Positions 33,280 to 64,000 of a stretch of 64,000 nucleotides of DNA are shown here, in pieces; position 1 is the stretch's first letter, and each line of letters opens with the position of its first letter. The translations under genes and the position numbers were made by a program. The notes beneath the pieces were generated by a model, which was given only the letters and a program-made list of their open reading frames with translations, was not told the origin of the DNA and made no database searches. This DNA comes from Candidatus Kapaibacterium sp. GTDB taxonomy: Bacteria; Bacteroidota; Ignavibacteria; Kapaibacteriales; Kapaibacteriaceae. Location of the stretch: positions 25,452 to 89,451 of the forward strand of contig JBIJAX010000001.1 in the NCBI GenBank assembly GCA_044345485.1, given 5' to 3'.

Positions 33280-33665
33280 CAGCGATCAGCGTGGATTGTT
33301 TTTCGGGGATGCCGGGCAGTTGCCTTGAGAACTATCTCAGGGAGGAAAGTCCGAACTCCACAGAACAGTGCGCTTCCTAACAGGAAGGTGGTAAGGGGCG
33401 GAGCGATCCGTTTCGAGCCAACGGAAAGTGCAACAGAAAGATACCGCCTTGGGCTCTGCATGCAGGGCCTGAGGTAAGGGTGAAATGGCAGGGTAAGAGC
33501 CTACCATCGATTAGGCAACTAATCGGATCGGCAAACCCCGCACGGAGCAAGACCAAGCAGGGCAAGGAACACTCGTGTTAACGTGCTGTTCGTGCGTTTA
33601 CCCCCAGGGGTAACCTTGTTCGGGTAGGTTGCTAGAGGTCAGCGGCGACGCTGATCCCAGATAAA
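33280..33665 (+). ncRNA. rnpB: RNase P RNA (bacterial type A)
   Basis: The universally conserved GGAAAGUCCG-AACUCC (P4 5' strand) and ACAGAAA motifs are present. The P1 helix is formed by 5' GAUCAGCG (33286-93) and 3' CGCUGAUC (33650-57). The region lies in a 540-nt gap with no ORF. Confidence 0.8.
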
Positions 33666-33812
33666 TAACTGCCTCCTCGCTCTGCGAGAAGACAGAATTC
33701 GGCTTACAGGCATCTCCGATTACAATCACGCAGTCGCGCAGTAGTTTTGCAGGAACGTCGGAACCATTCGGGACCGCATGGCGTATGCACTGACACACTT
33801 GGAGAGCGCTTC

Positions 33813-50459: not shown

Positions 50460-51620
50460 TCAGTCAACTCTTGATACTCTCGAATCTGTTTGTAGGGACG
50501 ACGGTGGGTTAACTATCACCGTCGTCCCTTTTTTTATTCCCTCGTGTATCTCAACGAAGTTCTTTGAGCGGCGTCCAAGCTTCACTGATTTCTGCACTGC
50601 CCTACCTTCATCTACAACAAACACCGATGTATCTGCACCTCGAACGGCAATGGCGTTCGAAGGAATCCGTAGCACACGATCAGCTTTCCACAACGTAATC
50701 TCTATCCTCACCTTGTATGCATCACCAAGCCGAACAGGCCACTGCGACACAATGACAATGTTGACACGTTGTTCTTCAATTCCAAGAGCAGACAACTTTG
50801 TGAAAGCGGCCGGTTCAATGCGCTGAACGGATGCCGAGATACTTCCAGCTGCACCAATATCAATGGATGCACTCATTCCAGCTCGTATCAATGCCGCATC
50901 TGCACTCAACAATTCAGCTACAATTTCAACAGAGTCAAATGTACCTAGCTCGTAGAGGGTTTGTCCAAGCGGAAGGATACGCTCCTGCTCAACAAACTTG
51001 CGCAACACTACTCCCTTAGCTGGACTGCGGATGGGGAGACCTGTCGACAAAAACGTGTTCAACATCGATGCTAGTGCCTGACTCTCATACTCGGACTGCA
51101 GAACGCGGAGTTCTGCTGAACGGAGTTCTGTTGCGGCTTGATTGTATCTCAAAAAGGCCTGCTCCCAAGAAGATTGCGCTACCGCGCCTATTCGAACAAG
51201 TCGCTGCTGCCTGTCTGCATCCAGCTTCAACTGCTCCACTTGAGGTTTGAGTCCATCTCGAGTTGTCCTTGCAACCTCCACAAGCTTGCCAAGAGCTAGG
51301 ACTTTATTCAGGAGTTCGTGTTCTGTGCGCTCATCCAAGCTAACTGGCTTGTACCTGCCCATGACGTCACCACGATGAACTGGATCACCTGGCTCTATCG
51401 CAGACGGGGTATAAACGCTAGCGACGGGAAGTGAGATGAGAACTTTCTGTCGTAATCGAACTTTGCCGTCACATGTTATCACACTCTCGATCACGCCAAG
51501 GTCTGCAGTTATGGTTTCAACGTCCACGGCGGCAGGCCTGGCAAGCAGATACACAATACCTGTAGTGAGCAGCGTCATTACTCCCCATACAGCGTACCTT
51601 GTTGCTATTGACGATTTCAT
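50460..51620 (-). CDS. HlyD-family periplasmic adaptor (membrane fusion protein) of ABC efflux system
   Basis: An N-terminal TM anchor, coiled coil and lipoyl/beta-barrel domains are present. It lies downstream of the permease and ATPase genes. Confidence 0.75.
   Translation of the reverse strand: MKSSIATRYAVWGVMTLLTTGIVYLLARPAAVDVETITADLGVIESVITCDGKVRLRQKVLISLPVASVYTPSAIEPGDPVHRGDVMGRYKPVSLDERTEHELLNKVLALGKLVEVARTTRDGLKPQVEQLKLDADRQQRLVRIGAVAQSSWEQAFLRYNQAATELRSAELRVLQSEYESQALASMLNTFLSTGLPIRSPAKGVVLRKFVEQERILPLGQTLYELGTFDSVEIVAELLSADAALIRAGMSASIDIGAAGSISASVQRIEPAAFTKLSALGIEEQRVNIVIVSQWPVRLGDAYKVRIEITLWKADRVLRIPSNAIAVRGADTSVFVVDEGRAVQKSVKLGRRSKNFVEIHEGIKKGTTVIVNPPSSLQTDSRVSRVD
50495..50535 (+). 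terminator. strong intrinsic terminator of secA, located inside the 3' end of the convergent hlyD-like CDS
   Basis: A perfect 12-bp stem gggacgacggtg / caccgtcgtccc has a 10-nt loop and is followed by seven T residues on the plus strand. Confidence 0.7.
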
Positions 51621-53986
51621 ATGCGTTCCTTCAGTACAGCAACAAGATCAAGCCGTTGCAGCATGAAGTAGATCCTAAGGGCTACAAAAGCCGATACGAC
51701 TATAATCACTGATGCCGATATGAGAACAGTCATACGCGACACGACAAACGGAATTCGGAGGAAGTCGGCTTCAACTGAGGTAGAGATCATATAGCTTAGA
51801 GCAATGCCTATGGCAACTCCGACTGGGATACCAACAACAGTTACGATGTACTGTTCACCAAGAATGATACGCGCGACCTCTCCAACTGTAAATCCCTGAA
51901 TCCGCATTGATGCCAGTTCAGCAGAGCGGTCTGCAATCACTATCCTGGCGTTGTTGTACAGTACGCCGATTGCAACTAAACATGCGAGCAGAAGCAGGTA
52001 TAGTGCAACTACCAGTACGTTCCCACCGTACACTTCAGTGAAACTTGCAATTGCTACATCGCGAAAGAGTACGCCAATAACGGCAGGACGATCTTTGAGC
52101 TTCGATTGGATCTGAACGGTTTGCTTCGGATCAGATTCGATGAAAGCACCATTGGCAAGGGGCTCTTCATGGCACAATGCTGAGAGTTCCTCTATGGTCG
52201 CATAGCACTGCGCCCCAAGCGCTTCCCGAGGCGTGCTGGCAAGTACCATGCTAACGGTGTCTCGCCGGTACTCAAGAAGAGCAATGCGCACAGTATCACC
52301 GATGTGCATTCCGAGCCGCTTCGCCAGATATTCTGTCATCGCCATACCTGCAAGCGGCACAGGCTGACGAATTCCATCGCCGTCGACGATCCGTATGAGA
52401 CGCGAATCAGGATTTCTACTCGAAAGTGTTGTACGATAGATTTCACTCGACGCAAGAACATCAACAGCGATAGATCTGAAAGGCTCTGATCGAGTAATTC
52501 CATCTATTGACTCTAACTCACGCGCCGCAGCAAATGGCACAGCTCGATTGAAGGTAACGGTTGCGCTGGCGAGCTTCGATTTGTCGTACTCAACATGCAT
52601 CATGTGATCCATAGCATCATCAATGTACCGAGCCAAGAGAATGATCGACGTTGCAAGTGCGATCATCGCCAGCACCACAATCGAAGGCAAAAGGCGTCTA
52701 TCAATATTCTGCAGCATTAGCCTCGTGGTCGTCTTGACATGACATACGGTACTGATGTGAGTCAGCGGTCCAGGATGAAATGTCTTTGGTGCTGGAGGCT
52801 TCATTGCTTCTGCCGGCTGCATGTTAAACACAGATCGAATGGCTCCTGCCGTACCTGCAACGGCAGCAAGCACAGCAAGGCCGACCGCAATCAGCATTGC
52901 ATCATTGGGGATGGCAAAGATCAACCGTGGAAAACGATAGAACTCCATATACCAATCAGCTAGCCGGATGCCCCCTGCATATCCGATAGCAGTACCGATG
53001 ATTGTTCCGAGTGCAACAACAACCATGGCCATAACGACATAGTGTCCGGCAATCGCACCGCGTGAGTATCCAAACGCACGAAGAACAGCGATGATACTGC
53101 GCTGAGACACCACCAGTCGGCTGATTGAGATGTTTAGTAAGAATATTGCAACACCGTAGATGATGCTCGGAATGATCAATGCGGATACTTCATTCTGCCG
53201 TATTTCATCTGTGATAAATCGGTGAGACAACTGGTCATTTCGCAATGATGTACCGAAGGAGCCGAATGGTCGAACAATTTCATCAAGAACGGGTCTCAGT
53301 CTAGACGGGCTTACGCCAGAACGCACTCGCAGTGCAGCTGAATTCCATCCGCCGATCATATTGAATCTCGTAGCCAGCACATCATCATGCATCCACAAGA
53401 CACCGTTACGTCTGTTGTCGAGCATCAACGTGCCCGGACTCATGATAATGAGATACTCCGGAGATATAGCCGTGCCAGCGATCCTGAGGCGAGTTCGAAT
53501 CCCATTGAGCAACACCGAAATGGAATCTCCAACGCTGAGGTTGTTCGCCTCTGCAAAAGGGGCATAGAGTACCACGGCTGCTACAGATCCCGCATCAGGC
53601 GCTGATCCACGCACATAGTGCAGGGAAGACAAAGAGGAACTATCATCGGTGGGTAGCGATACAACTTCAGCCGATGCAACCTCTTCAAGTCCGGGAATGT
53701 CAACAGAAACGCGGTGTCGCAGCCGAAGGCGCACATCCGAAACTCCATCAACTTGAGACAGGGCCTTATGCATACTATTCGGGGCCTGCTTTACATCAAT
53801 AAATATGTCTGGGTACCCTTGAGCCTGGTAATACGTCTGCAGACTAATCATCAATGAAGAATGCATGCTTCGCATCATGATGAACGTTGCACTTCCTGCT
53901 GCAACAAGCAGAATGATGGCCACTAGCTGACCGCGCAGCAGGCGCATGTCTCGCAGAGCCTTGCGCATAAGCGCAGGGATCACCAC
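51617..53986 (-). CDS. ABC transporter permease with two FtsX domains (MacB/YbbP-like, 789 aa)
   Basis: Two repeats each carry a large periplasmic loop and a four-TM FtsX module. It shows translational coupling overlaps with its neighbours. Confidence 0.75.
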   Translation of the reverse strand: MVIPALMRKALRDMRLLRGQLVAIILLVAAGSATFIMMRSMHSSLMISLQTYYQAQGYPDIFIDVKQAPNSMHKALSQVDGVSDVRLRLRHRVSVDIPGLEEVASAEVVSLPTDDSSSLSSLHYVRGSAPDAGSVAAVVLYAPFAEANNLSVGDSISVLLNGIRTRLRIAGTAISPEYLIIMSPGTLMLDNRRNGVLWMHDDVLATRFNMIGGWNSAALRVRSGVSPSRLRPVLDEIVRPFGSFGTSLRNDQLSHRFITDEIRQNEVSALIIPSIIYGVAIFLLNISISRLVVSQRSIIAVLRAFGYSRGAIAGHYVVMAMVVVALGTIIGTAIGYAGGIRLADWYMEFYRFPRLIFAIPNDAMLIAVGLAVLAAVAGTAGAIRSVFNMQPAEAMKPPAPKTFHPGPLTHISTVCHVKTTTRLMLQNIDRRLLPSIVVLAMIALATSIILLARYIDDAMDHMMHVEYDKSKLASATVTFNRAVPFAAARELESIDGITRSEPFRSIAVDVLASSEIYRTTLSSRNPDSRLIRIVDGDGIRQPVPLAGMAMTEYLAKRLGMHIGDTVRIALLEYRRDTVSMVLASTPREALGAQCYATIEELSALCHEEPLANGAFIESDPKQTVQIQSKLKDRPAVIGVLFRDVAIASFTEVYGGNVLVVALYLLLLACLVAIGVLYNNARIVIADRSAELASMRIQGFTVGEVARIILGEQYIVTVVGIPVGVAIGIALSYMISTSVEADFLRIPFVVSRMTVLISASVIIVVSAFVALRIYFMLQRLDLVAVLKERI

Positions 53987-54705
53987 ACGAGGTCCTTCGG
54001 TGCAGTTCGCTTCTCTACGGAATAGGTATCAACAATCTCACCACTGCGCATCAGGACAACTCGATCCGCCATCTTCGCTATTGATGCATTATGCGTGATG
54101 AGCACAACTGTTGTGTCGAATCTCTGATGTATCTGTTCGATCACATCGAGTACTACGATCCCCGTTGCAAGGTCCAGTGCACCGGTAGGTTCGTCGCAAA
54201 GTAGCACGTCTGGCCGCTTTGCAATTGCACGGGCAATTGCAACACGTTGCTGTTCGCCCCCTGAAAGCTGAGATGGGAAGTGGTCCATTCTATCGGCAAG
54301 CCCCACAAGCCCCAACATTTCTTCAACGTCAAGAGGGTCTTCTGTCAGATCTGTTACTAACTGAACATTCTCACGGGCCGTGAGAGATGGTATCAGATTG
54401 TAGAACTGGAATACAAAGCCAATTGAACATCTGCGATATGACGTGCGCTGCGTGTCTGAAGCAGATGTGAGGTCGGTCGTTCTGAATCGGATTGCGCCTG
54501 TCGTCGGTACATCGAGTCCACCAATGATGTTCATTAATGTAGACTTTCCGCTGCCTGACGCTCCCAGAATTACAACAAGCTCTCCCCTGCGTATCGTGAT
54601 ATTGATGTTCTTCAGAGCAACAACATCCACTTCACCCATCCTGTATGACTTTCCCAAATTCTCCAGGACATAGAGTGCTTCCAGATCATCGTGGCTGCCA
54701 TGCAT
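53980..54705 (-). CDS. ABC transporter ATP-binding protein (MacB/LolD-type)
   Basis: It has Walker [11 protein letters not shown], the signature [14 protein letters not shown] and Walker [12 protein letters not shown]. Confidence 0.9.
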
Positions 54706-54733: not shown

Positions 54734-55513
54734 CTACGCTTCTTGCACTATGATGTCTGCATCATGAGTAACAACGACGTAGTGTGATGGTTTGTCGGTC
54801 CAGGAACCACTATTCACATAACGCACTCCATCCTGCATGACATCCATTGCATGATGTGTATGCCCGGCAAAGACAACCGATGCATCATGCACCGTGCGGC
54901 CATGCCGAGATGCCTCATCGGCAACCTTGGCACTCATGCGGAGGAACTTCTTGCTAGTTCTCTTCACGAAGCGTGATGCTTTATGTTTTGGATCAACCTT
55001 CTGGAAGAAGTAGTAGAAACCTGACGCTATTGATGTAATCACGGGGTGCGTTGTAACCCACTTATCAAACTGATGCCCGTGAATGGCTAGAAATTTCTTG
55101 CCGTTCATCTCCCACGTATACTCTTCGAAGACTGGTACTCCCAGCAGATGGGACAGGATTTCTGCTACCCCACCGTCGTGATTTCCAACGACCCACACAA
55201 CATCAACCGCAGTGCGAGGGTTAGATAGTTTTCGAAGAAACGAGAGGAATTTCCAGTCATCTTTCGATAATCGCTTGAAGTTCAGACCGTCAAATACATC
55301 ACCGTTCAGGATTAGTCTTCGGTATTCATGCGTGCGCAGAAGCTGCACAAGTGGCTTAGCACGAGACACTTCTGAACCAAGATGTATATCTGATACGATT
55401 ATCGTATCGACACTCATTCTCTCTACGTGAGTAAGGGGCTGGAGCTCAGGATCGGCAAACTCCGGCCCCAGCTCGTTATTGATTTCGATCTGAACGTCTG
55501 AATGCATAGACAT
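54734..55513 (-). CDS. calcineurin-like metallophosphoesterase
   Basis: VSDIHLG ... NGDVFD ... GNHD ... GHTH are the phosphoesterase motifs. The start is ambiguous between 55513 and 55417. Confidence 0.65.
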   Translation of the reverse strand: MSMHSDVQIEINNELGPEFADPELQPLTHVERMSVDTIIVSDIHLGSEVSRAKPLVQLLRTHEYRRLILNGDVFDGLNFKRLSKDDWKFLSFLRKLSNPRTAVDVVWVVGNHDGGVAEILSHLLGVPVFEEYTWEMNGKKFLAIHGHQFDKWVTTHPVITSIASGFYYFFQKVDPKHKASRFVKRTSKKFLRMSAKVADEASRHGRTVHDASVVFAGHTHHAMDVMQDGVRYVNSGSWTDKPSHYVVVTHDADIIVQEA

Positions 55514-56252
55514 GCTGCTTGAAATAATTTTGCGGATACTCGATGCCGATGCCGTAAGCACTCGGTTTAGAATCGGTTGGACGAAACGCAGTACCGAACA
55601 TCCAGTCCCATATAGCGAGTTTGGTCGAGAAGTTCTTGTTGTGGGCAGCCCCATCCCGAGCATGATGCCAACGATGCATCTCGGGTCCGTTAATGATGTA
55701 CTGCAGCCAACCTGTTCTCACATTGATGTTCGAATGGATGTACATGCCCCAGGCGGCATCGACAGCCCCCTTCACGACGGCAATCTCGGGAGAGGCAAGG
55801 AGCAGTATTGGCGCGAACTCTACCGTTTGATTCACGAGAATCTCGAGAGAATGCGAGCGGCTGCCGCTTAGCCAGTCAACGTCAACTGTTGAATGATGAG
55901 CTTCGTGAAGTCTCCACAGGTAAGGGTTCGAATGCTGCCACCGGTGGAACCAGTAAATGTAGAAGTCGTGTATTACGAAGAACAGGGCAAACTGTGCAGT
56001 GAAAGGCAACCCACGAACTGCATGCCATCGCTCAAAGCTCGTATGATCGTCGATCACATTGATCAGATACGAGATCACCAATCCCATAATGTAACTCTGC
56101 AGGAGTGCATACATGACGAGATCTGTGGCAAACCCTTTACGTGTAAAGCTCTGCGATTGGTATGGATACCTGCGCTCCAATGCGATGAGCACTAGAGCAC
56201 AGAGCACTATTGACAGCGCTGAGAAGACTCGTATCATATCAATCGCATCCAC
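55476..56252 (-). CDS. fatty acid hydroxylase / sterol desaturase superfamily membrane protein
   Basis: Multiple TM segments carry His boxes HRWQH, HEAHH and HRWHHARD. Confidence 0.7.
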   Translation of the reverse strand: MDAIDMIRVFSALSIVLCALVLIALERRYPYQSQSFTRKGFATDLVMYALLQSYIMGLVISYLINVIDDHTSFERWHAVRGLPFTAQFALFFVIHDFYIYWFHRWQHSNPYLWRLHEAHHSTVDVDWLSGSRSHSLEILVNQTVEFAPILLLASPEIAVVKGAVDAAWGMYIHSNINVRTGWLQYIINGPEMHRWHHARDGAAHNKNFSTKLAIWDWMFGTAFRPTDSKPSAYGIGIEYPQNYFKQHVYAFRRSDRNQ

Positions 56253-56256
56253 AGAA

Positions 56257-57153
56257 TTACGCTCCGATCTCAGTGGAGATTACCTTACGCAGTTTCGCCC
56301 GCGGCCCCAGTTCACTTTCATAGACTCTCTTGACTCCGTCTCCAAGTGAAGCTTCTACATCACGAATGTCTCTGATCAGCCGCGCCAGTCCACCGAGCTC
56401 GACACTTGCAGCCTGATCTGTACCCCACATCGCGCGATCAAGGGTAATGTGGCGCTCAACAAACGATGCTCCTAATGCAACAGCAGCTGCTGTTGTTGTA
56501 AGCCCCACTTCGTGACCTGAATATCCAATTGGTACTCCTGGGTATCGTCCCTTGAGTGTCTCGATCATTCGAAGATTCAGTTCCTCTGGCTTACACGGAT
56601 ACGTTGATGTTGCGTGGGCGATCATCAAGTTTTCCGTACCAATCTCATCGACGGCAGCCCCGATTTCTTCCATCGTAGACATACCAGTTGATATGATCAA
56701 TGGTCTACCTGTGGCGATCATGGTATTGAGCAGATCAAGATCTGTAAGTGATGCACTTGCAGCTTTGTAGAACGGCACATTAAAGTTCTCTTCCATAAAT
56801 GCCACAGCCTCGATATCCCAGCACGATACAGTCCAATCAATACCGCGACGCTTGCAGTATTCATCGATCACTGTGTAATCATCGGCATCGAACTCAACCT
56901 TATGACGGTAATCGATGTACGTCATGCGGCCCCACGGCGTATCCCGCTCGAGGTGCCACTGATCTTTGGGCACGCATAGCTCGGGCGTCCTTTTTTGAAA
57001 CTTCACACAGTTTGCACCAGCCTGCACTGCACCGTCTATCATCGCGAGTGCATTGTCAAGCGACCCATTATGGTTGATACCAATCTCTGCGATCACGTAG
57101 ACAGGATGGCCATCCCCAATCACTGCCGAACCGATGTTTCGAATACGTTTCAT
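56257..57153 (-). CDS. NeuB-family PEP-condensing sugar synthase lacking the C-terminal SAF domain
   Basis: VIAEIGINHNG, KFQK, ISTGMS, GYSGHEVG and ERHITLD match the sialic acid synthase TIM barrel. It is only about 300 aa and shows no AFP/SAF-like C-terminus. Confidence 0.7.
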   Translation of the reverse strand: MKRIRNIGSAVIGDGHPVYVIAEIGINHNGSLDNALAMIDGAVQAGANCVKFQKRTPELCVPKDQWHLERDTPWGRMTYIDYRHKVEFDADDYTVIDEYCKRRGIDWTVSCWDIEAVAFMEENFNVPFYKAASASLTDLDLLNTMIATGRPLIISTGMSTMEEIGAAVDEIGTENLMIAHATSTYPCKPEELNLRMIETLKGRYPGVPIGYSGHEVGLTTTAAAVALGASFVERHITLDRAMWGTDQAASVELGGLARLIRDIRDVEASLGDGVKRVYESELGPRAKLRKVISTEIGA

Positions 57154-57184
57154 TTGCCCACTCCTCATTGTGTTGTACAGATAA

Positions 57185-57988
57185 TTACCAAGCAGTCCAT
57201 CCACCGTCTACAATCAGATTGTGTCCTGTCATGTACGCGCTTGCATCGCTTGCGAGAAACACGAGCGCTCCCTCATAGTCACTTGGGGATGCCATCCTTC
57301 CCATAGGTGTACGCTGCGAGTACTTCTCTTGGAATGTGTCTGAATGACCGTTTTGCACTCCTCCAGGCGAGAGTGTGTTTGCGCGCACCCCTGCCGTGCC
57401 CCAATAGGTCGCAAGAAACTTGGTGAGCATCAGCACTGCACCCTTACTGGCTGGATAGGCTGAACTCTTATACATCTGTTGAACACCGTTTGAGTCTTGG
57501 TACAGTCGCTGATCGGGAGCAACCACACCGTAGGTAGAGCCAATGTTGATGATCGAGCCACCGCCCTGCTGGGCCATTATGGATCCAAGAACCTGGCACA
57601 TAAGAAAGGTGCCGGTAACGTTTACCTCCATGACTCGCCGAAACAGTTGGACCGGATACTGTTCAAATGCTGATTGTTCAGCAGATGACAAGGGGCTCTC
57701 AACAGCGTCATTCATTGCTGCGTTGTTCACCAGGATATCAATTCGACCATGCTCATTCAAGATCATGTCACGCAGTTCCATGACACTTTCTTGATCAGTC
57801 ACGTCCACGTAGGCGCCAGCATGCTGTGGTCCAAGGTGTTCTGCGATCCTGCGCGCCTGAGCAGCTTGATTATCGCAGGCATAGACAATTGCTCCCGCGT
57901 TTGCTAACGCTGCACAGTGCCTCCTGCCAAGTAGTCCCGAGGCTCCAGTTACAACAGCCACGCGATCATGTAGCGAGAAATCCATCAC
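57185..57988 (-). CDS. SDR-family oxidoreductase
   Basis: The TGASGLLG Rossmann motif and YxxxK (YPASK) are present. Confidence 0.8.
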   Translation of the reverse strand: MMDFSLHDRVAVVTGASGLLGRRHCAALANAGAIVYACDNQAAQARRIAEHLGPQHAGAYVDVTDQESVMELRDMILNEHGRIDILVNNAAMNDAVESPLSSAEQSAFEQYPVQLFRRVMEVNVTGTFLMCQVLGSIMAQQGGGSIINIGSTYGVVAPDQRLYQDSNGVQQMYKSSAYPASKGAVLMLTKFLATYWGTAGVRANTLSPGGVQNGHSDTFQEKYSQRTPMGRMASPSDYEGALVFLASDASAYMTGHNLIVDGGWTAW

Positions 57989-59322
57989 GGCTGGAGTACT
58001 CCTCGGTTGTGTCGAGGCTTCGTATTGAAATTTGATGTTTTACGAAAGACGGGTTCTACAGGCTTGCCCCGGAGCGCAGCCGCCAGTGTTCCAGAATCAA
58101 CATGCTCTTTCAGGCTGGGCAGAATGTCACTATATGCCTCGATCGTGTGATCAACATCGTGCTGCGTATGTGCAGCTGAGATGTTGTGCGTTCCCGACCA
58201 GAGAACTCCACGAATAAGGAGCTCTTGCTGCAGATACGACTTCATTACGAGTGGATCTCCGTATGCGGAGTTAAAGTTGATCATCGTGCGCATGCCGAGA
58301 CCCTGACATGACATAAAGTCACATCCGTATCGTCCGATAGCATTGTTGATACCATCCTTGAGTGTTGTGCCAATTGCATGAATACGAACTGGGATACTCT
58401 CATCTCGAATGATCTTCATTGTGGCTTTCGCAGCCGCAAGCGACAGTGCCTCTCCGCCAAATGTGGTAAAGAAGAATACATCGTGCTCGAGATGGCGCAT
58501 GATCTCTGCCTTACCGGCAAGAACCGAGAGTGGCATGCCATTAGCAATCGCTTTTGAATAGCAGACTAAGTCAGCTTCCACACCATAGTATTCTTGTGCG
58601 CCCCCTCCGGCAATACGAAAGCCAGTCCACATCTCATCGAAGATCAAGACGATGCCACGTTCATAGCACAGTTCGCGCAGGTCCTCGAGAAACCCATGCT
58701 GAGGTTCTTCAAACACAACTGGCTCGAGAATGATCGCAGCTGTATCATCGTCCACGGCATCGATCACGCTCTGGATGTTGTTATATGTGAACGTATATGT
58801 AAGGTTCTTTACGGCCTCGGGAATACCAGCAGACCGATCCGTAACTGCGATGTACCAATCATGCCATCCATGATAACCACAGCAAAGTATAGTGTTACGT
58901 CCTGTATGCGCGCGTGCAAGCCGCACAGCAGCCGACGTAACATCACAACCAGTCTTTGAGTATCGAACACATTCGACAGAAGGTATCATTTCTCGTAGGA
59001 GTTCTGCTACTTCAACCTCAAGCGGATGCATGAGTGAAAACGTAATTCCGTCGTGAAGCTGCTCTTCGATGGCTCTGTTGATTACAGGGTGTGAGTAGCC
59101 AAGAACAATAGGTCCCACCCCCATTGTATAGTCCAGATAGCGATTATCATCTACGTCCCACAGATATGCCCCCTTACCACGTTGTGCATAGGATGGAGCA
59201 ACACCTTGAACATACTGCTGAGGTCCTTTGGCAAGAGTCTGTGTAAATGCTGGTATGATACCTTCTGCTCGCTGTAGCAGTTCCTGAGAACGACGAATCG
59301 GAGGAAGTGTGTGATTATTCAT
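57985..59322 (-). CDS. class-III (GSA-aminomutase-like) PLP-dependent aminotransferase
   Basis: Fold-type-I class III motifs are present (GAYLWDVDDNRYLDY, the DEMWTGFR PLP region, and a Lys in YSKAIANG). Confidence 0.75.
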   Translation of the reverse strand: MNNHTLPPIRRSQELLQRAEGIIPAFTQTLAKGPQQYVQGVAPSYAQRGKGAYLWDVDDNRYLDYTMGVGPIVLGYSHPVINRAIEEQLHDGITFSLMHPLEVEVAELLREMIPSVECVRYSKTGCDVTSAAVRLARAHTGRNTILCCGYHGWHDWYIAVTDRSAGIPEAVKNLTYTFTYNNIQSVIDAVDDDTAAIILEPVVFEEPQHGFLEDLRELCYERGIVLIFDEMWTGFRIAGGGAQEYYGVEADLVCYSKAIANGMPLSVLAGKAEIMRHLEHDVFFFTTFGGEALSLAAAKATMKIIRDESIPVRIHAIGTTLKDGINNAIGRYGCDFMSCQGLGMRTMINFNSAYGDPLVMKSYLQQELLIRGVLWSGTHNISAAHTQHDVDHTIEAYSDILPSLKEHVDSGTLAAALRGKPVEPVFRKTSNFNTKPRHNRGVLQP

Positions 59323-60262
59323 AGGTCTGCTCCTCGTGGATATGTGTGGTGATAAACGTCTCTATCCGCGCCGCGATAGTTATCGGATCCATTCCCTCGT
59401 GAGCCAACACCTCCTGAAGCCTGCCTGGCTTGAACCATGAGGACAGTGCAATTGGGAGCACGCGAGCATGATGTTCTAGATGATGACGAAGCAGCACTTC
59501 TCCCACGATCGAGAAGAGTCCACCGGTCACAAGATGATCCTCGAGCGTCACAACAACACTTGCATGTTGTAGTTCTTCGACAATACGTCGTTCGTCAACT
59601 GGTTTCAATGTTCGCATGTTGATAAGCCGTACGCGGATATCTTTTGCCTCGAGGAGTGGGATGACTGCGTGTGCAATCCTGCACATGTATCCATATGTAA
59701 GGATAGTTACATCTATTGCAGCCGAATCGGATGAATGAAGCACCTCTGCAACGCCAGGGATAAATGGCTCGGCATGCACAAAGCTTGCAGGCATGCCGAT
59801 GTAGCGGACGTAGTAGGGCTTTCCTTCAGTGATCAAATAGTCCATACCTTCGACGAATTCGTCGATATCACACGGACAGAACACACCGATGTTTGGTATA
59901 CCCCTCATGATAGCCACGTCTTCAATGGCTTGGTGTGTTGGCCCATTACCGTCACTAAGGACTCCAGGCACCATACCAACCATGATCACTGATGCATTTG
60001 GGATTCCGACGTCATCGCGGATAAACTCATACGATCGCATAGTAATGAAGGCTGCAAGAGCATGCGTAACAACTGTCCTGCCTCGCATTGCCATACCTGC
60101 AGCCATGCCTATCATCGTCTGCTCTGCAATGCCGACATCGATAAATCGCTCACCAAGAAGCGGCGGTACGGTTCGCAGATGGCCCCTATTTTCTGCGGTG
60201 AGAACCATGAGTTCGTTAGAATTCTGACAATGTCGCAGCAGCAGTTCCTCATATGGATTCAT
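59315..60262 (-). CDS. transketolase, C-terminal (pyrimidine-binding) subunit
   Basis: The motif IDVGIAEQTMIGMAAGMA is present. Split TK organisation. Confidence 0.8.
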   Translation of the reverse strand: MNPYEELLLRHCQNSNELMVLTAENRGHLRTVPPLLGERFIDVGIAEQTMIGMAAGMAMRGRTVVTHALAAFITMRSYEFIRDDVGIPNASVIMVGMVPGVLSDGNGPTHQAIEDVAIMRGIPNIGVFCPCDIDEFVEGMDYLITEGKPYYVRYIGMPASFVHAEPFIPGVAEVLHSSDSAAIDVTILTYGYMCRIAHAVIPLLEAKDIRVRLINMRTLKPVDERRIVEELQHASVVVTLEDHLVTGGLFSIVGEVLLRHHLEHHARVLPIALSSWFKPGRLQEVLAHEGMDPITIAARIETFITTHIHEEQTYE

Positions 60263-61116
60263 CGTACCACCATAGTTTCAGATGTAAGTTCGGCCGTGGA
60301 CTTGCCGTTGAGTTCATCGATGAGCTCAACGATTTCTTGCAATGAAAAATCGCAGAACCATCTGTCTGCCCTGTCGGCAATGGATGGTACTCCCTTTCCT
60401 CGTTGCGTGTTGGCGATCACAACATTCGGTCTACCCTGACCTGTCATGAGTGCTGTAAACGTCTGATCAAGGTCATCAAAGTCATGTCCGTCTGCCTGAT
60501 GTACGAACCATCCGAACGAACGGAACTTGTCCGTAAGGGGCTCTAAAGGAACAAGTTCTTCAGTCCTCATGTTGGCTTGAAACCCATTGCGGTCTACGAC
60601 CATGATCAGGTTATCAACCTTATTAGCGGCGGCGGTGAGAGCCCCCTCCCAGATTGATCCTTCATTCAGTTCACCGTCACCAACAATCACCACCACTCGT
60701 GTTGGCAGTCCCTTCATACGAGCGTCAATAGCCATGCCGATCCCAACACTTAGCAAGTGACCAAGAGAACCCGAGTGGAATTCGACACCTGGTATGTCAC
60801 GATTGGGATGCCAATAGATCGAATCGTTGGTAGACAAGTGATGCTGCAGTCTGGCCGGTTCGATGTATCCCAGTTCAGCAAACACGCCATATAGCGCCGG
60901 AACGTCGTGACCCTTGGAAAGCAGCAGGATGTCGCGGTATTCATCACGCACCATCGCAGGGCTAATTCGTAGATACCGCGAATAGAGATAGACAAGGAGG
61001 TCGGCACAGGACAATGAGGCTCCGGTAAACGCGCCGCCATTTGTAGACATCCGTAGGATATGTTCGCGCACATTGCGTGCAGTTCGCTCAAGTGTTTGTG
61101 CGTCGTCTAGATTCAT
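60259..61116 (-). CDS. transketolase, N-terminal (TPP-binding) subunit
   Basis: LSKGHDVPALY, GSLGHLLSVGIGMA and GDGELNEGSIWE identify the TPP-binding half. Confidence 0.8.
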   Translation of the reverse strand: MNLDDAQTLERTARNVREHILRMSTNGGAFTGASLSCADLLVYLYSRYLRISPAMVRDEYRDILLLSKGHDVPALYGVFAELGYIEPARLQHHLSTNDSIYWHPNRDIPGVEFHSGSLGHLLSVGIGMAIDARMKGLPTRVVVIVGDGELNEGSIWEGALTAAANKVDNLIMVVDRNGFQANMRTEELVPLEPLTDKFRSFGWFVHQADGHDFDDLDQTFTALMTGQGRPNVVIANTQRGKGVPSIADRADRWFCDFSLQEIVELIDELNGKSTAELTSETMVVR

Positions 61117-61952
61117 GCGGCCTCCGATGATGAAGATGTTTCGCCGGCCCAGAATCGCGTTTCAGAGGGATGGATAGTTCGGAGAACATCAAGGTGATGT
61201 CGATACCAGTTCACCCCACAGAGATGAGCATTTAACATTGCCACCTCTGGATGCTGTTCAATGTGATCTATGATATCAGCAAAGGAAAACTCTGGGTTAT
61301 CAGGGTACAGTGCCTCATAGACTGATCGAATGAGCTTATAATCATCGTGATAATCAATTGTCCATCGATGACTCATGCTTAAGTCTGCACCGTTTGGATT
61401 AGTCACATTGCAGCACTGTATGCTGGTGTTGCCATCCCACAACCATGGTGTGGTGTGCTCGCGCTCATGGGGTGCTTTGGCTGTAACGAAGGCTCTTCGT
61501 AGCACGTCGATCGACATCACTTCGACGTCATTACCGTCAGGCCATGTTGCAGGGTGAAGATTACTCGTGTATTCAACGTCCGGGTATCGCTCAAGGAACC
61601 GTTCTACAACTAAGTCGATGATGTCAGGATCGATGAGCGGACAATCCGACGGCACCTTCACAACAATGTCTGCGTCATGCGTAACCGCAGCATGGTAGGT
61701 TCTATCAAGTAGATCTGTTGTGTGCCCGCGATACCAGTTCCAGCCATGAGCATCACACATCTTCACGATTGCGCCGTCCTCCGTACGCATTGTTGTAGCC
61801 ACTACAACGTCATGCGCATACTTCGCCCTTGAAACACGTTCAACAAATCGCTGAAGCAAGGGGGCTCCAGCAAGAGGCAGCATAACTTTGCCGGGCAAAC
61901 GCGTCGAGCCCATTCGTGCCTGGCAAACCAACACAACATGCGGAGTACTCAT
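61113..61952 (-). CDS. cytidylyltransferase (SpsF/NeuA/PseF family)
   Basis: VVLVCQARMGSTRLPGKV is the CMP-sugar synthetase N-terminal signature. It shares an ATGA overlap with the upstream gene. Confidence 0.7.
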   Translation of the reverse strand: MSTPHVVLVCQARMGSTRLPGKVMLPLAGAPLLQRFVERVSRAKYAHDVVVATTMRTEDGAIVKMCDAHGWNWYRGHTTDLLDRTYHAAVTHDADIVVKVPSDCPLIDPDIIDLVVERFLERYPDVEYTSNLHPATWPDGNDVEVMSIDVLRRAFVTAKAPHEREHTTPWLWDGNTSIQCCNVTNPNGADLSMSHRWTIDYHDDYKLIRSVYEALYPDNPEFSFADIIDHIEQHPEVAMLNAHLCGVNWYRHHLDVLRTIHPSETRFWAGETSSSSEAA

Positions 61953-62968
61953 GATGCCCTCCGAGAAACTGTGACGTCTTTGAGAGGATAGACGTTGCAT
62001 GTTGGTCTACTTAGTAGATCGACACATTCATCAGCAATTGCTCTTGCCGATGTTCCTCCGTTCTGTATCGGACAAAGTCTGCGTAGCTCCTCCATTGGGA
62101 AGTCGCTGTATACATCCTTGCCAAGGGCGATACCAACATAGACGCATGAGCTGTATTTCGTTATCAATACATCGCAGTCTGCAATAAGTGCATCAATACT
62201 GCAGCTATGGTACACTTTTGCATCTGGAGCATATCGTTCGATTTCACGTGTAGCTCTTGCAACGTTCTCATTTGGATGCAGCTTAAAGACGAGTTTACGC
62301 CCAGCTGCAATGCGCACTGCATGTTCAATCGTCTTGCGTCGATTCTCGTACTTAAACGTCTCCCGTGCATCGCTTGTTGCAACAAGTACATAGCCCGATG
62401 CTTGCGGCAGAGTGGACGCCACAAATGAACTACAGTTGTCGAAGTTTGGAATACCTGTTACGACAATCTTTGCAGGGTTGGCCCCCTTCCTAACGAATAA
62501 CTTCTTATACCCCTCCGATGCAACACACATGCGTTCATAAGCATGAGAGAGACCAAATGTGGACGTTGATGCAAGGTAGCGTGGGAGCCGGAGTAACTTT
62601 ACGACGTGATACATGACCGTTTCTGGATCCGTCATGCCCTCCTGCACTAGCACAATGCGTTTCTTGCGAATGTTGCTAGGAAGGAATAGATCGCTGCATG
62701 TCACAACCAAATCGTAGTCATGCTGACGTCCAGCAAAGTCGATGTTGAGATTGTGTTTACGCAACAGATCAGCTGCTCTTTGCTGATGGCCCTTACCAAC
62801 GATGGTCCACTCCAGAAGACCATTGCGTTCTAGCATACCCAGCAATCCGTCAGTATAGTGCGGCGTAAACCAACACTCATACATCGGCAGGTGTTCAGCG
62901 ATCTTCATCATCATCGTGGTCTGATTAACAGAGCCGCAGATGAAGAGGATTCTCTTATAGTTTATCAT
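61949..62968 (-). CDS. putative GT-B-like glycosyl/ulosonate transferase (KpsC/KpsS or TagF-like HP motif)
   Basis: A Rossmann-like N-terminus (RILFICGS) and a VFKLHPNE motif suggest this fold. The call is family-level only. Confidence 0.35.
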   Translation of the reverse strand: MINYKRILFICGSVNQTTMMMKIAEHLPMYECWFTPHYTDGLLGMLERNGLLEWTIVGKGHQQRAADLLRKHNLNIDFAGRQHDYDLVVTCSDLFLPSNIRKKRIVLVQEGMTDPETVMYHVVKLLRLPRYLASTSTFGLSHAYERMCVASEGYKKLFVRKGANPAKIVVTGIPNFDNCSSFVASTLPQASGYVLVATSDARETFKYENRRKTIEHAVRIAAGRKLVFKLHPNENVARATREIERYAPDAKVYHSCSIDALIADCDVLITKYSSCVYVGIALGKDVYSDFPMEELRRLCPIQNGGTSARAIADECVDLLSRPTCNVYPLKDVTVSRRAS

Positions 62969-63083
62969 TGCCCCACACAGAACGATTGCAGAAGGAAGAA
63001 CTCCCGCAAATCTCATGTGTGGCTGTCATGTAATCGTTACGACAATATTTCTTTTGCGTAACTGGGGTGATGGAGCCGTAATA

Positions 63084-64000
63084 CTACGGTTTCTGCCATT
63101 GCGGATTTCGCACTGCTGTTGAATCTGTTAACGATTTCATAAACGCAACAAGAGCAGCTTTTTCAGTATCAGTGAGATTAAGTTTCTTCACGCGCCTGTC
63201 TCTATTCGGGAACGGGAGGCCACCATCATTGTAATGATCAACAACCTGCTCAAGAGTATTCATCGGCCCCTTCTCAGCATCGCCACTTGCCATATACGGC
63301 GGTGTTAGAGCAATGTTCCGCAAGGTCGGCGTCTTGAATAGTCCTTCGTCCTTCGGATCCTTGGTCACGTTGTATCGGCCACGGTCGAAGTAGTGGCTGA
63401 ATAACCCAATGTTCTGGAACTGATCATTGGTAAAGTCCTGCCCACCGTGACATGAACCGCACATCGTTTTGTTACTGAAGAACAGATTCATGCCTTCGCG
63501 CTCTTGCGCTGTTAACGCCGACGTGTTACCGAGCACGTACTGATCATAACGACTGTTAGCACTTACGATGGTGCGTTCAAAACTTGCTATAGCCTTCATG
63601 ACGCGGCTCATGGTAACGGCAGTGTCGCCGAATGCATTCAGCCACGTCTTGGCGTAATCAGATGTTCGCATCAATGCTGCAACCGCAACTGTGTCTGCAT
63701 CCATCTCGACCGAACTCAAGAACGCAGCCATGGCTTGTTGTTCAAGCGTCGATGCTCTGCCGTCCCAGAAGAACGACGTTCGGTAAGCAGCGTTAACAAT
63801 AGTTGGACTGTTGCGCTGTCCGCGAGCCCCATTTACTCCTCTGCTAACTTGATTCGGGGCATCGGAAAATGCAAGCTGTGGACTGTGACATGAAGCGCAT
63901 GCAACTGTTCCGTCTCCCGAGAGTCTGGTGTCATAGAATAGCTGACGTCCCAACTCAACTTTAGCAGGTGTCAGAGGATTATCCGCTGGTACTGGCACTC
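63084..64000 (-). CDS. di-heme cytochrome c peroxidase (CCP/MauG family), 5' end beyond window
   Basis: It has a first CxxCH (CASCHSP) and a second (CGSCHGG), plus the family motif LFYDTRLS. The N-terminal signal peptide is not seen in the window. Confidence 0.8.
   Translation of the reverse strand, partial: VPVPADNPLTPAKVELGRQLFYDTRLSGDGTVACASCHSPQLAFSDAPNQVSRGVNGARGQRNSPTIVNAAYRTSFFWDGRASTLEQQAMAAFLSSVEMDADTVAVAALMRTSDYAKTWLNAFGDTAVTMSRVMKAIASFERTIVSANSRYDQYVLGNTSALTAQEREGMNLFFSNKTMCGSCHGGQDFTNDQFQNIGLFSHYFDRGRYNVTKDPKDEGLFKTPTLRNIALTPPYMASGDAEKGPMNTLEQVVDHYNDGGLPFPNRDRRVKKLNLTDTEKAALVAFMKSLTDSTAVRNPQWQKP

Follow-up and report, generated by a model that had tools for sequence, protein, structure and literature searches.

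The 64,000-nucleotide stretch of DNA analyzed here (the window) comes from Candidatus Kapaibacterium sp. and covers positions 25,452 to 89,451 of the forward strand of contig JBIJAX010000001.1. Between window positions 54734 and 63016, it carries nine open reading frames (ORFs) on the minus strand, which a first-pass annotation made from the sequence alone had described as an operon resembling a pathway for a cytidine monophosphate (CMP)-activated amino-ulosonic acid. All nine ORFs were found at these coordinates, and gene calling done independently on an identical metagenomic contig yields the same genes. We conclude that these genes are a copy of a real multi-phylum module, which most likely makes a CMP-activated, amine-bearing derivative of a nine-carbon sugar acid, Kdn (2-keto-3-deoxy-D-glycero-D-galacto-nononate), with the help of a transketolase (TK)-like enzyme whose active site has been rebuilt.

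In the direction of transcription, the minus-strand genes begin with that of a probable transferase with a cytidine-nucleotide donor, whose GT-B fold places it in the epimerase/TagF lineage (61949..63016; the start is probably Met17 at 62968). Next are genes for a SpsF/KdsB-type cytidylyltransferase of the CTP_transf_3 family, presumed to be a CMP-ulosonate synthetase (61113..61952; its start and the upstream stop share 4 nt as ATGA), and for the two subunits of a divergent, split transketolase-like thiamine diphosphate (ThDP) enzyme, namely, the N-terminal subunit TK-N (Transketolase_N; 60259..61116) and the C-terminal subunit TK-C (Transket_pyr plus Transketolase_C; 59315..60262). A class-III pyridoxal phosphate aminotransferase resembling glutamate-1-semialdehyde (GSA) aminomutase (Aminotran_3; 57985..59322) and a classical short-chain dehydrogenase/reductase (SDR) of the polyol/sugar-acid dehydrogenase type (adh_short_C2; 57185..57988) are followed by a NeuB-family phosphoenolpyruvate (PEP)-condensing synthase that lacks a SAF domain and is probably a Kdn-9-phosphate synthase (56257..57153; 298 amino acids [aa] from the ATG at 57153). 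The last two genes encode an OlsE-like membrane di-iron hydroxylase of the FA_hydroxylase (fatty acid hydroxylase) family (55476..56252; gene-caller start, 56237) and a calcineurin-like metallophosphoesterase (Metallophos_2; 54734..55507; start at 55507 or 55513), a probable replacement for the ulosonate-9-phosphate phosphatase.

The domain content proposed in the first-pass annotation holds, as Pfam and NCBIfam place eight of the nine proteins above curated thresholds and leave only the GT-B protein with sub-threshold matches. Its statement that the genes overlap by 4 to 8 nt is accurate for the first five junctions (4, 4, 4, 8, and 4 nt, computed with starts backed by homolog lengths and the gene caller) and not for the other three, which are a gap of about 31 nt from SDR to NeuB, a gap of 4 to 19 nt from NeuB to the hydroxylase, and an overlap of ~32 nt between the hydroxylase and the metallophosphoesterase. 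No DegT-type aminotransferase, NDP-sugar 4,6-dehydratase, or N-acetyltransferase family was matched among the nine proteins in Pfam and NCBIfam, which bears out the contrast drawn earlier with known pathways that use DegT-type enzymes.

To compare the locus with others, representative genomes were scanned with a NeuB alignment and metagenomes with a TK-N alignment, and all window proteins were mapped by tblastn onto the retrieved loci (designated here by L numbers). Searches with NeuB, the aminotransferase, and the GT-B protein each gave at least about 7,000 to 8,000 homologs, and nearly all of the sequences compared are metagenome derived. The order GT-B, cytidylyltransferase, TK-N, TK-C, class-III aminotransferase, SDR, a haloacid dehalogenase-type (HAD) gene in most relatives, NeuB, and FA-hydroxylase is syntenic in dozens of unrelated contigs, and the gene arrangement is therefore far beyond chance. 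Carriers of the module include Ignavibacteria and Melioribacter-like metagenome-assembled genomes (MAGs), Chitinophagales and other Bacteroidota, Kapabacteria, a delta-proteobacterial MAG, an Oligoflexia MAG, and the cultured methanotroph Methylomagnum ishizawai.

Linkage was counted in loci fetched through TK-N alone, with the contigs long enough to tell as the denominator. The cytidylyltransferase was present in all 57 informative loci and GT-B in 42 of 43, followed by TK-C (45/50), the aminotransferase (35/39), the SDR (33/38), NeuB (28/32), the HAD (24/36), and the FA-hydroxylase (20/28). The linkage of the transketolase halves to a NeuB-like gene, on which the first-pass annotation had staked its reading, is thus conserved. 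When all ORFs of 46 loci were clustered all against all, only the nine module families recurred and no other family occurred in more than five loci; therefore, the module moves as one unit and its flanks vary.

Strain-variable O-antigen or capsule loci for sialic acids typically contain NeuB, a cytidylyltransferase, and a transferase, and the block could be imagined as an ordinary locus of that kind lying beside a pentose-phosphate transketolase paralog. However, the gene order is conserved across phyla with variable flanks, the surroundings in the window are housekeeping genes (SecA, alanine racemase, ScpAB, lipoyl synthase, and MetH), and the base composition of the block is the same as that of the rest of the window. 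Moreover, Pfam revealed neither Wzx/Wzy genes nor genes of the DegT or acetyltransferase type in the block, and the active-site signature of the TK-like enzyme, described below, is invariant and noncanonical. This explanation is largely refuted by the synteny and active-site data, and we find it barely credible.

The NeuB homolog covers profile positions 1 to 241 of 241 in the Pfam NeuB family (PF03102; 250 bits versus a cut-off of 22.1), and no SAF domain was found in the protein, which ends just after the NeuB domain. It scores below the equivalog cut-offs for N-acetylneuraminic acid (Neu5Ac) synthase (TIGR03569; 238.1 versus 399.65) and PseI (TIGR03586; 189.6 versus 340.25). Its conservation is unusually high, with 61 to 75% identity across phyla, and the same orthologous group includes Streptomyces NeuB proteins (67 to 70% identity) from dozens of genomes. 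The Streptomyces context, consisting of a divergent glycosyltransferase family 2 (GT2) gene, a DUF6716 gene, a NeuA-HAD fusion, and NeuB, matches the published SCO4878-SCO4881 genes. According to PMC3479208, and to PMC13011467 citing Ostash et al. 2014, these belong to SCO4873-82, a cluster that is activated by PhoP and serves a Kdn polymer, teichulosonic acid. Biochemical work in Bacteroides thetaiotaomicron and Prymnesium has established the route from mannose-6-phosphate (Man-6-P) and PEP through Kdn-9-phosphate (Kdn-9-P) and Kdn to CMP-Kdn (PMC6200933).

Neighboring genes point in the same direction. In most non-Streptomyces clusters (24 of 34), a 170-aa HAD directly adjoins NeuB, and its best NCBIfam match is the model of the B. 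thetaiotaomicron Kdn-9-P phosphatase (NF058599; 154 to 160 bits, with a cut-off of 180), with KdsC as the second or third match. In a Thermochlorobacter MAG (L005), a gene for a bifunctional phosphoglucose/phosphomannose isomerase (bact-PGI_C; 8784-9842) lies directly upstream of the NeuB ortholog, and an SDR gene whose product is 58% identical to the window SDR lies 6 kb downstream. The orthology with the Streptomyces Kdn operon, the adjoining HAD, and the phosphomannose isomerase (PMI) neighbor together suggest a Kdn-9-P synthase. From this context, NeuB is predicted to make a 9-phosphorylated ulosonic acid, most likely Kdn-9-P from mannose-6-P.

The window has no HAD gene and carries the metallophosphoesterase instead (Metallophos_2, 46.1 bits), whose translation contains the motifs DIH, GDVFD, GNHD, GH, and GHTH. 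Over the 34 clusters, the two phosphatase types were mutually exclusive, as 24 clusters had the HAD only, 5 had the metallophosphoesterase only, 5 had neither, and none had both. The metallophosphoesterase genes occur only in the lineage of the window (the window itself, L002, L004, L088, and L093), where they are located after the hydroxylase gene, and because these five cases represent one lineage, we count them as a single replacement event. This pattern, a point absent from the first-pass annotation, suggests that the metallophosphoesterase is a probable lineage-specific stand-in for the HAD ulosonate-9-phosphate phosphatase. An identity as LpxH was considered and rejected, as no LpxH model in NCBIfam was matched.

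The first-pass annotation had proposed that the transketolase generates a nonstandard aldose phosphate that NeuB then condenses with PEP. If the NeuB substrate were made by the transketolase, one would expect distinct NeuB proteins in TK-containing clusters and in TK-less Kdn loci, and no such difference was found. In a neighbor-joining tree without support values, the Streptomyces and Chlorobi NeuB proteins nest among the TK-type ones. Among 111 positions that are at least 95% conserved in 44 TK-type NeuB proteins, 105 are identical in the Streptomyces consensus, with six conservative differences, and all 111 are identical in Chlorobi. Variants of the module are also informative: the transketolase genes are missing in one lineage (L030), the aminotransferase is missing in L006 and L114, and the SDR is missing from the clusters of L052 and L129, which keep the TK and aminotransferase genes. 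NeuB is unchanged in these variants where it can be observed, as L114 ends before NeuB. The similarity of NeuB proteins with and without TK, together with these variants, makes it most likely that the SDR, the TK-like enzyme, and the aminotransferase tailor Kdn after condensation rather than supply the NeuB substrate.

A more explicit form of the earlier order, modeled on the aminoshikimate pathway, would have the SDR and aminotransferase form an amino-ketose phosphate, the transketolase trim it to an (amino)aldose phosphate, and NeuB condense this with PEP before dephosphorylation and CMP activation. The enzyme set does parallel that of the pathway to AHBA (3-amino-5-hydroxybenzoic acid), and the phosphatase in the module indicates that the NeuB substrate is phosphorylated. 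However, the NeuB orthologs are indistinguishable whether or not TK, aminotransferase, and SDR genes accompany them, the Streptomyces operon, which has no TK, is linked to plain Kdn, and NeuB is equally conserved in the TK-less L030. The canonical phosphate-binding residues of transketolase are missing, a PMI gene adjoins NeuB in L005, and the usual neighbor of NeuB is the HAD that resembles a Kdn-9-P phosphatase. The aldose phosphate proposal thus finds no support, with NeuB orthologs also serving the TK-less Streptomyces Kdn and Chlorobi loci, and we consider such an order quite unlikely. The first-pass annotation had added that the cluster would be ordinary if it were syntenic with a characterized locus. 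This is true of its synthase, phosphatase, and CMP-synthetase part, which matches the known Kdn pathway, and not of the tailoring genes; hence, the novelty lies in the tailoring enzymes and not in the condensation substrate.

TK-N matches Transketolase_N at 79.3 bits and TK-C matches Transket_pyr and Transketolase_C at 89.9 and 67.4 bits, respectively (Pfam), and the best structure for TK-N is the split transketolase 6yak (E value = 2.8e-51). We aligned the enzyme to the split transketolase of Carboxydothermus and to human transketolase, and the canonical transketolase residues are numbered here as in Escherichia coli. Published residue roles are sugar-hydroxyl binding for His26, His261, and Asp469 and phosphate binding for Ser385, His461, and Arg520 (PMC11387542). 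The cofactor residues are kept and invariant, both the Mg/ThDP motif GDGELNEG...N in TK-N and the cofactor Glu (IAEQ) in TK-C, and so are the equivalents of His66 and His100 in TK-N and of His473 (PTHQ) in TK-C. The equivalent of His26 is Phe in 91 of 91 orthologs, that of His261 is Phe in 92 of 92, that of Asp469 is Asn in 71 of 71, and that of His461 is V, F, or I in 71 of 71. The Ser385 equivalent is variable (H or A), the Arg358 equivalent is not placeable in the alignment, and the Arg520 equivalent is absent, with a shortened Y(V/I)RY segment in its place. New invariant residues have appeared, including the His in GSLGH of TK-N and E24, N25, R26, and R30 in TAENRxxxR of TK-C. Retention of the equivalents of His66, His100, and His473 and of the cofactor Glu, alongside the changes elsewhere, indicates, as far as an alignment can, that the pocket for the hydroxymethyl (dihydroxyethyl-ThDP) unit is retained and that the site for an open-chain sugar phosphate is rebuilt. 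An ordinary pentose-phosphate paralog, which the first-pass annotation had set against its own reading, was rejected on both synteny and the noncanonical invariant active-site residues.

The aminotransferase matches Aminotran_3 at 180 bits (Pfam), with the GSA-like PRK06209 as its best NCBIfam match (377.8 bits versus a cut-off of 486); it is below the cut-off of the HemL equivalog (TIGR00713; 256.9 versus 527.3 bits), and its genomic context is a sugar-acid module, not haem synthesis. Structurally, it is related to GSA aminomutases, to aminopentol aminotransferase, and to the C-6' aminotransferase of the GenB type. The SDR matches adh_short_C2 at 160.9 bits (Pfam), and its best NCBIfam matches, all below cut-off, are gluconate 5-dehydrogenase, PRK09186, mannonate oxidoreductase, and KduD; its best structures are gluconate 5-dehydrogenase (1vl8) and galactitol, sorbitol, and polyol dehydrogenases. 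In one contig (L086, 10001-12250), a single 749-aa ORF (P0200) fuses TK-C (Transket_pyr plus Transketolase_C) to the class-III aminotransferase, and this fusion suggests that TK and the aminotransferase handle the same intermediate in consecutive steps.

These features allow us to propose a pathway. By homology and gene context, the SAF-less NeuB would condense PEP with a hexose 6-phosphate, most likely mannose-6-P, to Kdn-9-P, and the phosphatase (the HAD in most relatives, the metallophosphoesterase in the lineage of the window) would remove the 9-phosphate. The SDR would then oxidize the penultimate C8 hydroxyl of the Kdn side chain to a ketol, 8-keto-Kdn; C8 is proposed because the relatives of this SDR oxidize the carbon next to a terminal CH2OH. 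Derived from the D-glycero-D-galacto configuration and read from C9, 8-keto-Kdn is HOCH2-CO-CHOH-, and its Fischer projection shows the C7 hydroxyl at the left and O6 at the right, a D-threo (3S,4R) configuration as in transketolase donors. The TK-like ThDP enzyme may remove C8 and C9 and leave a C7 aldehyde on the pyranose ring, and we speculate that the Phe/Phe/Asn substitutions could accommodate this ring instead of a linear chain. The class-III aminotransferase, for whose relatives a comparable aldehyde is the substrate type (GSA and the aminoglycoside 6'-aldehyde), would convert the aldehyde to an amine, giving 7-amino-3,7-dideoxy-heptulosonic acid (C7H13NO6; 207.07 Da). Oxidation of the terminal carbon of an ulosonic acid before amination has a precedent in 8-amino-8-deoxy-Kdo (Kdo8N; Kdo is 3-deoxy-D-manno-octulosonic acid), according to the account of Gattis 2013 given in PMC5125639. 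Finally, again by homology and gene context, the SpsF/KdsB-type cytidylyltransferase would CMP-activate the sugar, and the GT-B protein with its TagF-type donor motif would transfer it to an acceptor.

Our confidence differs among the parts of this proposal. We hold with good confidence that the module is self-contained and serves to make and activate a tailored ulosonic acid of the Kdn type and probably also to transfer it. A module with Kdn condensation, C8 oxidation, C2 excision, amination, CMP activation, and transfer is the best explanation as a whole, to which we give about an even chance, and the specific C2-excision chemistry remains tentative. Several points weigh against the proposal. 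Phe replaces the histidines thought to deprotonate the donor C3 hydroxyl, which argues against efficient ketol cleavage, and the loss of these histidines fits equally well with a 2-oxoacid-decarboxylating enzyme such as AniP. The retention of TK and aminotransferase genes in L052 and L129 is awkward if the SDR, whose gene is absent from these clusters, acts first. The Streptomyces NeuB is tied to Kdn by S. coelicolor genetics and context similarity only, and the neighbor-joining tree has no support values and is built mostly on sequences from metagenome bins.

The most serious competitor is direct amination with no chain shortening, in which the SDR and aminotransferase act at C5, C7, or C8 of Kdn to give neuraminic acid or 8-amino-8-deoxy-Kdn, and the TK-like enzyme has a separate task, such as the decarboxylation of a 2-oxo acid by which a side group is supplied or removed. 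An SDR-transaminase pair is the standard route by which a sugar carbon is aminated, related class-III enzymes also act on ketones (aminopentol aminotransferase), the module exists without TK in L030, and the lost His26 and His261 equivalents would suit a TK-like enzyme with 2-oxoacid donors, as is AniP (PMC11387542). Chlorobi, which carry a HAD-NeuB-FA-hydroxylase triad, also count in its favor, as an aminoglycosphingolipid of Chlorobium limicola reportedly contains neuraminic acid. However, direct amination gives no defined substrate to the strictly co-inherited TK-like enzyme (present in 45 of 50 informative loci), and none of the residues for the hydroxymethyl (dihydroxyethyl-ThDP) unit has been lost. 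The fusion of TK-C to the aminotransferase also suggests that both act on the same intermediate. On balance, direct amination seems rather unlikely to us.

Activation and transfer would depend on the first two genes of the module. The cytidylyltransferase matches PF02348 at 86.9 bits (Pfam) and reaches no NCBIfam equivalog cut-off; its best solved relative is 6oew ("Cytidylyltransferase"; E value = 5e-41), with KdsB structures next. The GT-B protein, with only about 340 aa, belongs to a family annotated only as "hypothetical protein." An AlphaFold model built from 24 homologs (predicted local distance difference test score = 84.7) has the two-Rossmann GT-B fold, with structural matches to PglA (15.7), TagF (14.8), TarL (14.5), and a polysialyltransferase (14.2) and with 2-epimerases as the top neighbors. 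The family profile matches one solved protein only, a TagF-like capsule polymerase (CDVLITKYSS versus CDLLITDYSS; E value = 1.5e-4). From motif and model, the protein is a probable transferase that uses a cytidine-nucleotide donor, and it may instead be an epimerase-like hydrolase.

That this sole sequence-level structural relative uses cytidine diphosphate (CDP)-alcohol donors invites yet another explanation, a CDP-aminoalcohol branch. The SDR would produce a (phospho)hydroxypyruvate-type 2-oxo acid, the TK-like enzyme would decarboxylate it, and the aminotransferase would form an aminoalcohol phosphate (phosphoethanolamine, for example). The cytidylyltransferase would convert this to a CDP-alcohol, and the TagF-like protein would transfer the phospho-alcohol onto a Kdn-containing acceptor. 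The lost aldehyde-binding histidines fit a simple decarboxylase, and 2-aminoethylphosphonate synthesis follows the same logic, with a transaminase acting after a ThDP decarboxylase. However, the cytidylyltransferase falls into the ulosonate-specific CTP_transf_3 family and not with TagD, IspD, or LicC, and the Kdn that NeuB and the phosphatase produce would then have no activating enzyme in the module. We regard this branch as highly improbable.

The FA-hydroxylase gene is a core member of the module, a point that the first-pass annotation had not made. Its product matches PF04116 at 104.7 bits (Pfam), and its sole NCBIfam match, over nearly the full length, is OlsE (NF052566; 124.9 bits versus a cut-off of 475). 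The translation contains HRWQH, HEAHH, and HRWHH, the three His boxes of the FA_hydroxylase superfamily. The gene follows NeuB in about 70% of the informative clusters. As membrane di-iron enzymes act on lipids, the hydroxylase probably acts, by analogy, on a lipid acceptor or a lipid-bound product. In Chlorobiales, a HAD-NeuB-FA-hydroxylase triad is clustered without other module genes nearby (L084, 9405-11754; also L085 and L021). The triad may be linked to the aminoglycosphingolipid of Chlorobium (Jensen 1991, cited in PMC11762602). The lipid of Chlorobium limicola reportedly contains neuraminic acid. As a separate observation, a GT2 gene of the Glyco_transf_21 type (ceramide-glucosyltransferase-like) was found 2.7 kb upstream of the Chlorobiales triad.

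Other lipid-related genes flank the module in some lineages. A gene of the LPG_synthase_TM family (MprF flippase-domain-like) lies directly upstream of GT-B in L033 (2768-3688), L087 (5228-6286), and L086 (7286-8365), and one lies upstream of GT-B also in L095, L100, L110, and L157, which represent different lineages. Pairs of OlsB-like (Acetyltransf_5) and OlsA-like (Acyltransferase) genes adjoin the module in L082 (13042-14572) and L087 (3472-5006); they belong to Methylomagnum ishizawai and a Bacteroidota MAG and lie on opposite sides of the module in different orientations. Together with the OlsE-like hydroxylase, these pairs hint at a link to acyloxyacyl aminolipids. MacB/FtsX-type ATP-binding cassette (ABC) systems lie by the module in the lineage of the window, L087, and L110. 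Among the 46 loci, OlsB/OlsA-like pairs occur in two, LPG_synthase_TM genes in about seven, and ABC/FtsX genes in about five, so these neighbors are suggestive and no core association. The most far-reaching version of our proposal is a widespread pathway to new seven-carbon amino-ulosonic acids that proceeds by C8 oxidation, excision of C8 and C9 by a new TK-like family, amination, and CMP activation and ends in TagF-like attachment to a membrane lipid prepared or modified by the OlsE-like hydroxylase; it is improbable in its entirety.

Comparison with known systems helps to locate what is new. Several parts of the module recur in the CMP-Kdn pathway (BT1713/BT1714, Prymnesium parvum, and SCO4879-81). 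Both have a NeuB-family synthase, for which a sugar 6-phosphate is the substrate (predicted in the module), as well as a CTP_transf_3 cytidylyltransferase and a transferase, and most relatives of the module also have a dedicated HAD phosphatase of the C0 type. The NeuB/phosphatase/cytidylyltransferase core is probably a CMP-Kdn pathway. In contrast, the TK-like ThDP enzyme, the class-III aminotransferase, the SDR, and the membrane di-iron hydroxylase are additions of the module, and the window has a metallophosphoesterase and no HAD. The module also differs from the Streptomyces system in having a SpsF/KdsB-like cytidylyltransferase instead of a NeuA-HAD fusion and a transferase that is not DUF6716; no tblastn match to the window cytidylyltransferase was found in the Streptomyces loci.

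The legionaminic and pseudaminic acid pathways, including B. subtilis SpsC-G, likewise combine NeuB-family PEP condensation with a SpsF/NeuA-type cytidylyltransferase and yield amino-ulosonic products. Unlike the module, they aminate nucleotide-hexoses before condensation, with DegT-type aminotransferases, 4,6-dehydratases, N-acetyltransferases, and a hydrolyzing epimerase, none of which is in the module, and their NeuB-type synthases use nonphosphorylated sugars and carry the SAF domain that the module NeuB lacks. The nearest logical parallels lie elsewhere, in Kdo8N, the aminoshikimate pathway, and the AniP/AniQ pair. In the aminoshikimate route to AHBA and rifamycin, an oxidoreductase, an aminotransferase, a phosphatase, and a split transketolase (rif orf15A/B) accompany a PEP-condensing enzyme. 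That condensing enzyme is a homolog of 3-deoxy-D-arabino-heptulosonate 7-phosphate synthase and not of NeuB, the aminotransferase is AHBA-synthase/DegT-like, and the transketolase acts before condensation, an order against which NeuB orthology argues in the module.

In the synthesis of Kdo8N in Shewanella by the oxidase KdnB and the aminotransferase KdnA, as PMC5125639 relates it from Gattis et al. 2013, a finished ulosonic acid likewise undergoes oxidation and then transamination at its distal carbon, and it is the CMP-sugar form of the product that is used. However, KdnB is an iron-type alcohol dehydrogenase that acts on a primary alcohol where the module uses an SDR, the aminotransferase of the module is of class III, Kdo8N synthesis involves no ThDP enzyme, and the backbone is eight-carbon Kdo and not Kdn. 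AniP is a TK-family ThDP enzyme that also has nonconserved phosphate- and sugar-binding residues and stands alongside an aminotransferase, a glycosyltransferase, and a dehydrogenase (AniP/AniQ/AniO/AniN; PMC11387542). It differs in that it consists of one 603-aa chain, accepts specifically aromatic 2-oxo acids, and serves a pyrrolidine alkaloid (anisomycin), whereas the module enzyme is split, keeps the His residues that hold the hydroxymethyl unit, and has a sugar-acid pathway setting. For the GT-B protein, TagF/TarL and the putative nonulosonic acid transferases of the BFO_1060 family (TIGR04396) share the fold and a C-terminal LIT(D/K)YSS donor-binding motif, but the module protein, short and with 2-epimerases nearest in structure, scores far below the curated cut-offs.

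None of the pathways to Neu5Ac, Kdn, Kdo, Kdo8N, legionaminic acid, and pseudaminic acid has a counterpart to the enzymes added here, namely, the set of ThDP enzyme, class-III aminotransferase, SDR, and di-iron hydroxylase. To our knowledge, these known ulosonic-acid pathways use no thiamine enzyme. The first-pass annotation had recognized no described pathway with this enzyme complement, and searches of full texts available without subscription likewise returned no description of the gene combination. Conserved ThDP-dependent tailoring would bring a new reaction type to sugar-acid biosynthesis and would define a new functional family of the transketolase superfamily, recognizable by its invariant residue signature. 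The module is abundant in environmental genomes, and assignment of its product would name thousands of genes. It would also predict a new cell-envelope component in the Fibrobacteres-Chlorobi-Bacteroidetes group, some methanotrophs, and delta-proteobacteria-like and Oligoflexia MAGs; in the most far-reaching version of our proposal, if it is true, Ignavibacteria, Bacteroidota, relatives of Chlorobi, and some proteobacteria would have a new glycolipid or aminolipid that contains an ulosonic acid. The proposed product gives a concrete mass to seek in mass-spectrometric surveys of microbial sugar acids, and the exchange between HAD and metallophosphoesterase offers a testable example of non-orthologous phosphatase replacement.

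Individual copies of the module depart from the common arrangement. GT-B, cytidylyltransferase, and TK-N genes are followed by unrelated opposite-strand genes in L096 and L119 (8100-10860 in both) and in L094, which may be split or decayed copies. The NeuB ortholog of L104 (6316-7166) was matched in two adjacent pieces (6316-6804 and 6810-7166), which suggests a frameshift, a pseudogene, or an assembly error. In an Ignavibacteria MAG (L003, 4663-6795), a gene for a 710-aa tetratricopeptide repeat (TPR)-histidine kinase lies between TK-N and TK-C, and L129 has at the same place a 1.3-kb stretch without an ORF of at least 80 aa. The inserted and nearby ORFs of L003, the TPR histidine kinase and a GNAT protein, were considered as pathway members and set aside as unrelated.

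In the window, the codirectional block runs past position 54734. Minus-strand genes for an ABC ATPase (53980-54705), a 789-aa double-FtsX permease (51617-53986), and a HlyD-like adaptor (50460-51620), with Pfam labels from the gene call on the same contig, begin 28 nt after the metallophosphoesterase gene and overlap one another by 7 and 4 nt. The trio is syntenic in L002 and L088, and ABC-type genes flank only 5 of the 46 clusters; it is possibly cotranscribed with the module, though outside the module core, and could export the module product or be unrelated to it. On the other side, 67 nt upstream of the module, the same strand carries a gene for a di-haem cytochrome c peroxidase (CCP_MauG; 63084-63998, minus strand), which keeps its synteny in L002 and L089 and may share a promoter with the module in this lineage. 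Sequence scans around the operon gave promoter-like and terminator-like matches at chance level only. A regulatory RNA for the operon was rejected, as the sole Rfam family matched in the window was the bacterial class A RNase P RNA at 33304-33722 on the plus strand (271.9 bits), and no tRNA genes were found in the 64-kb window. Elsewhere, the window contains three very large ORFs (1432, 888, and 1572 aa) on the minus strand at 7349-14310 and 21001-25719, as well as an 809-aa immunoglobulin-repeat protein at 42600-45029.

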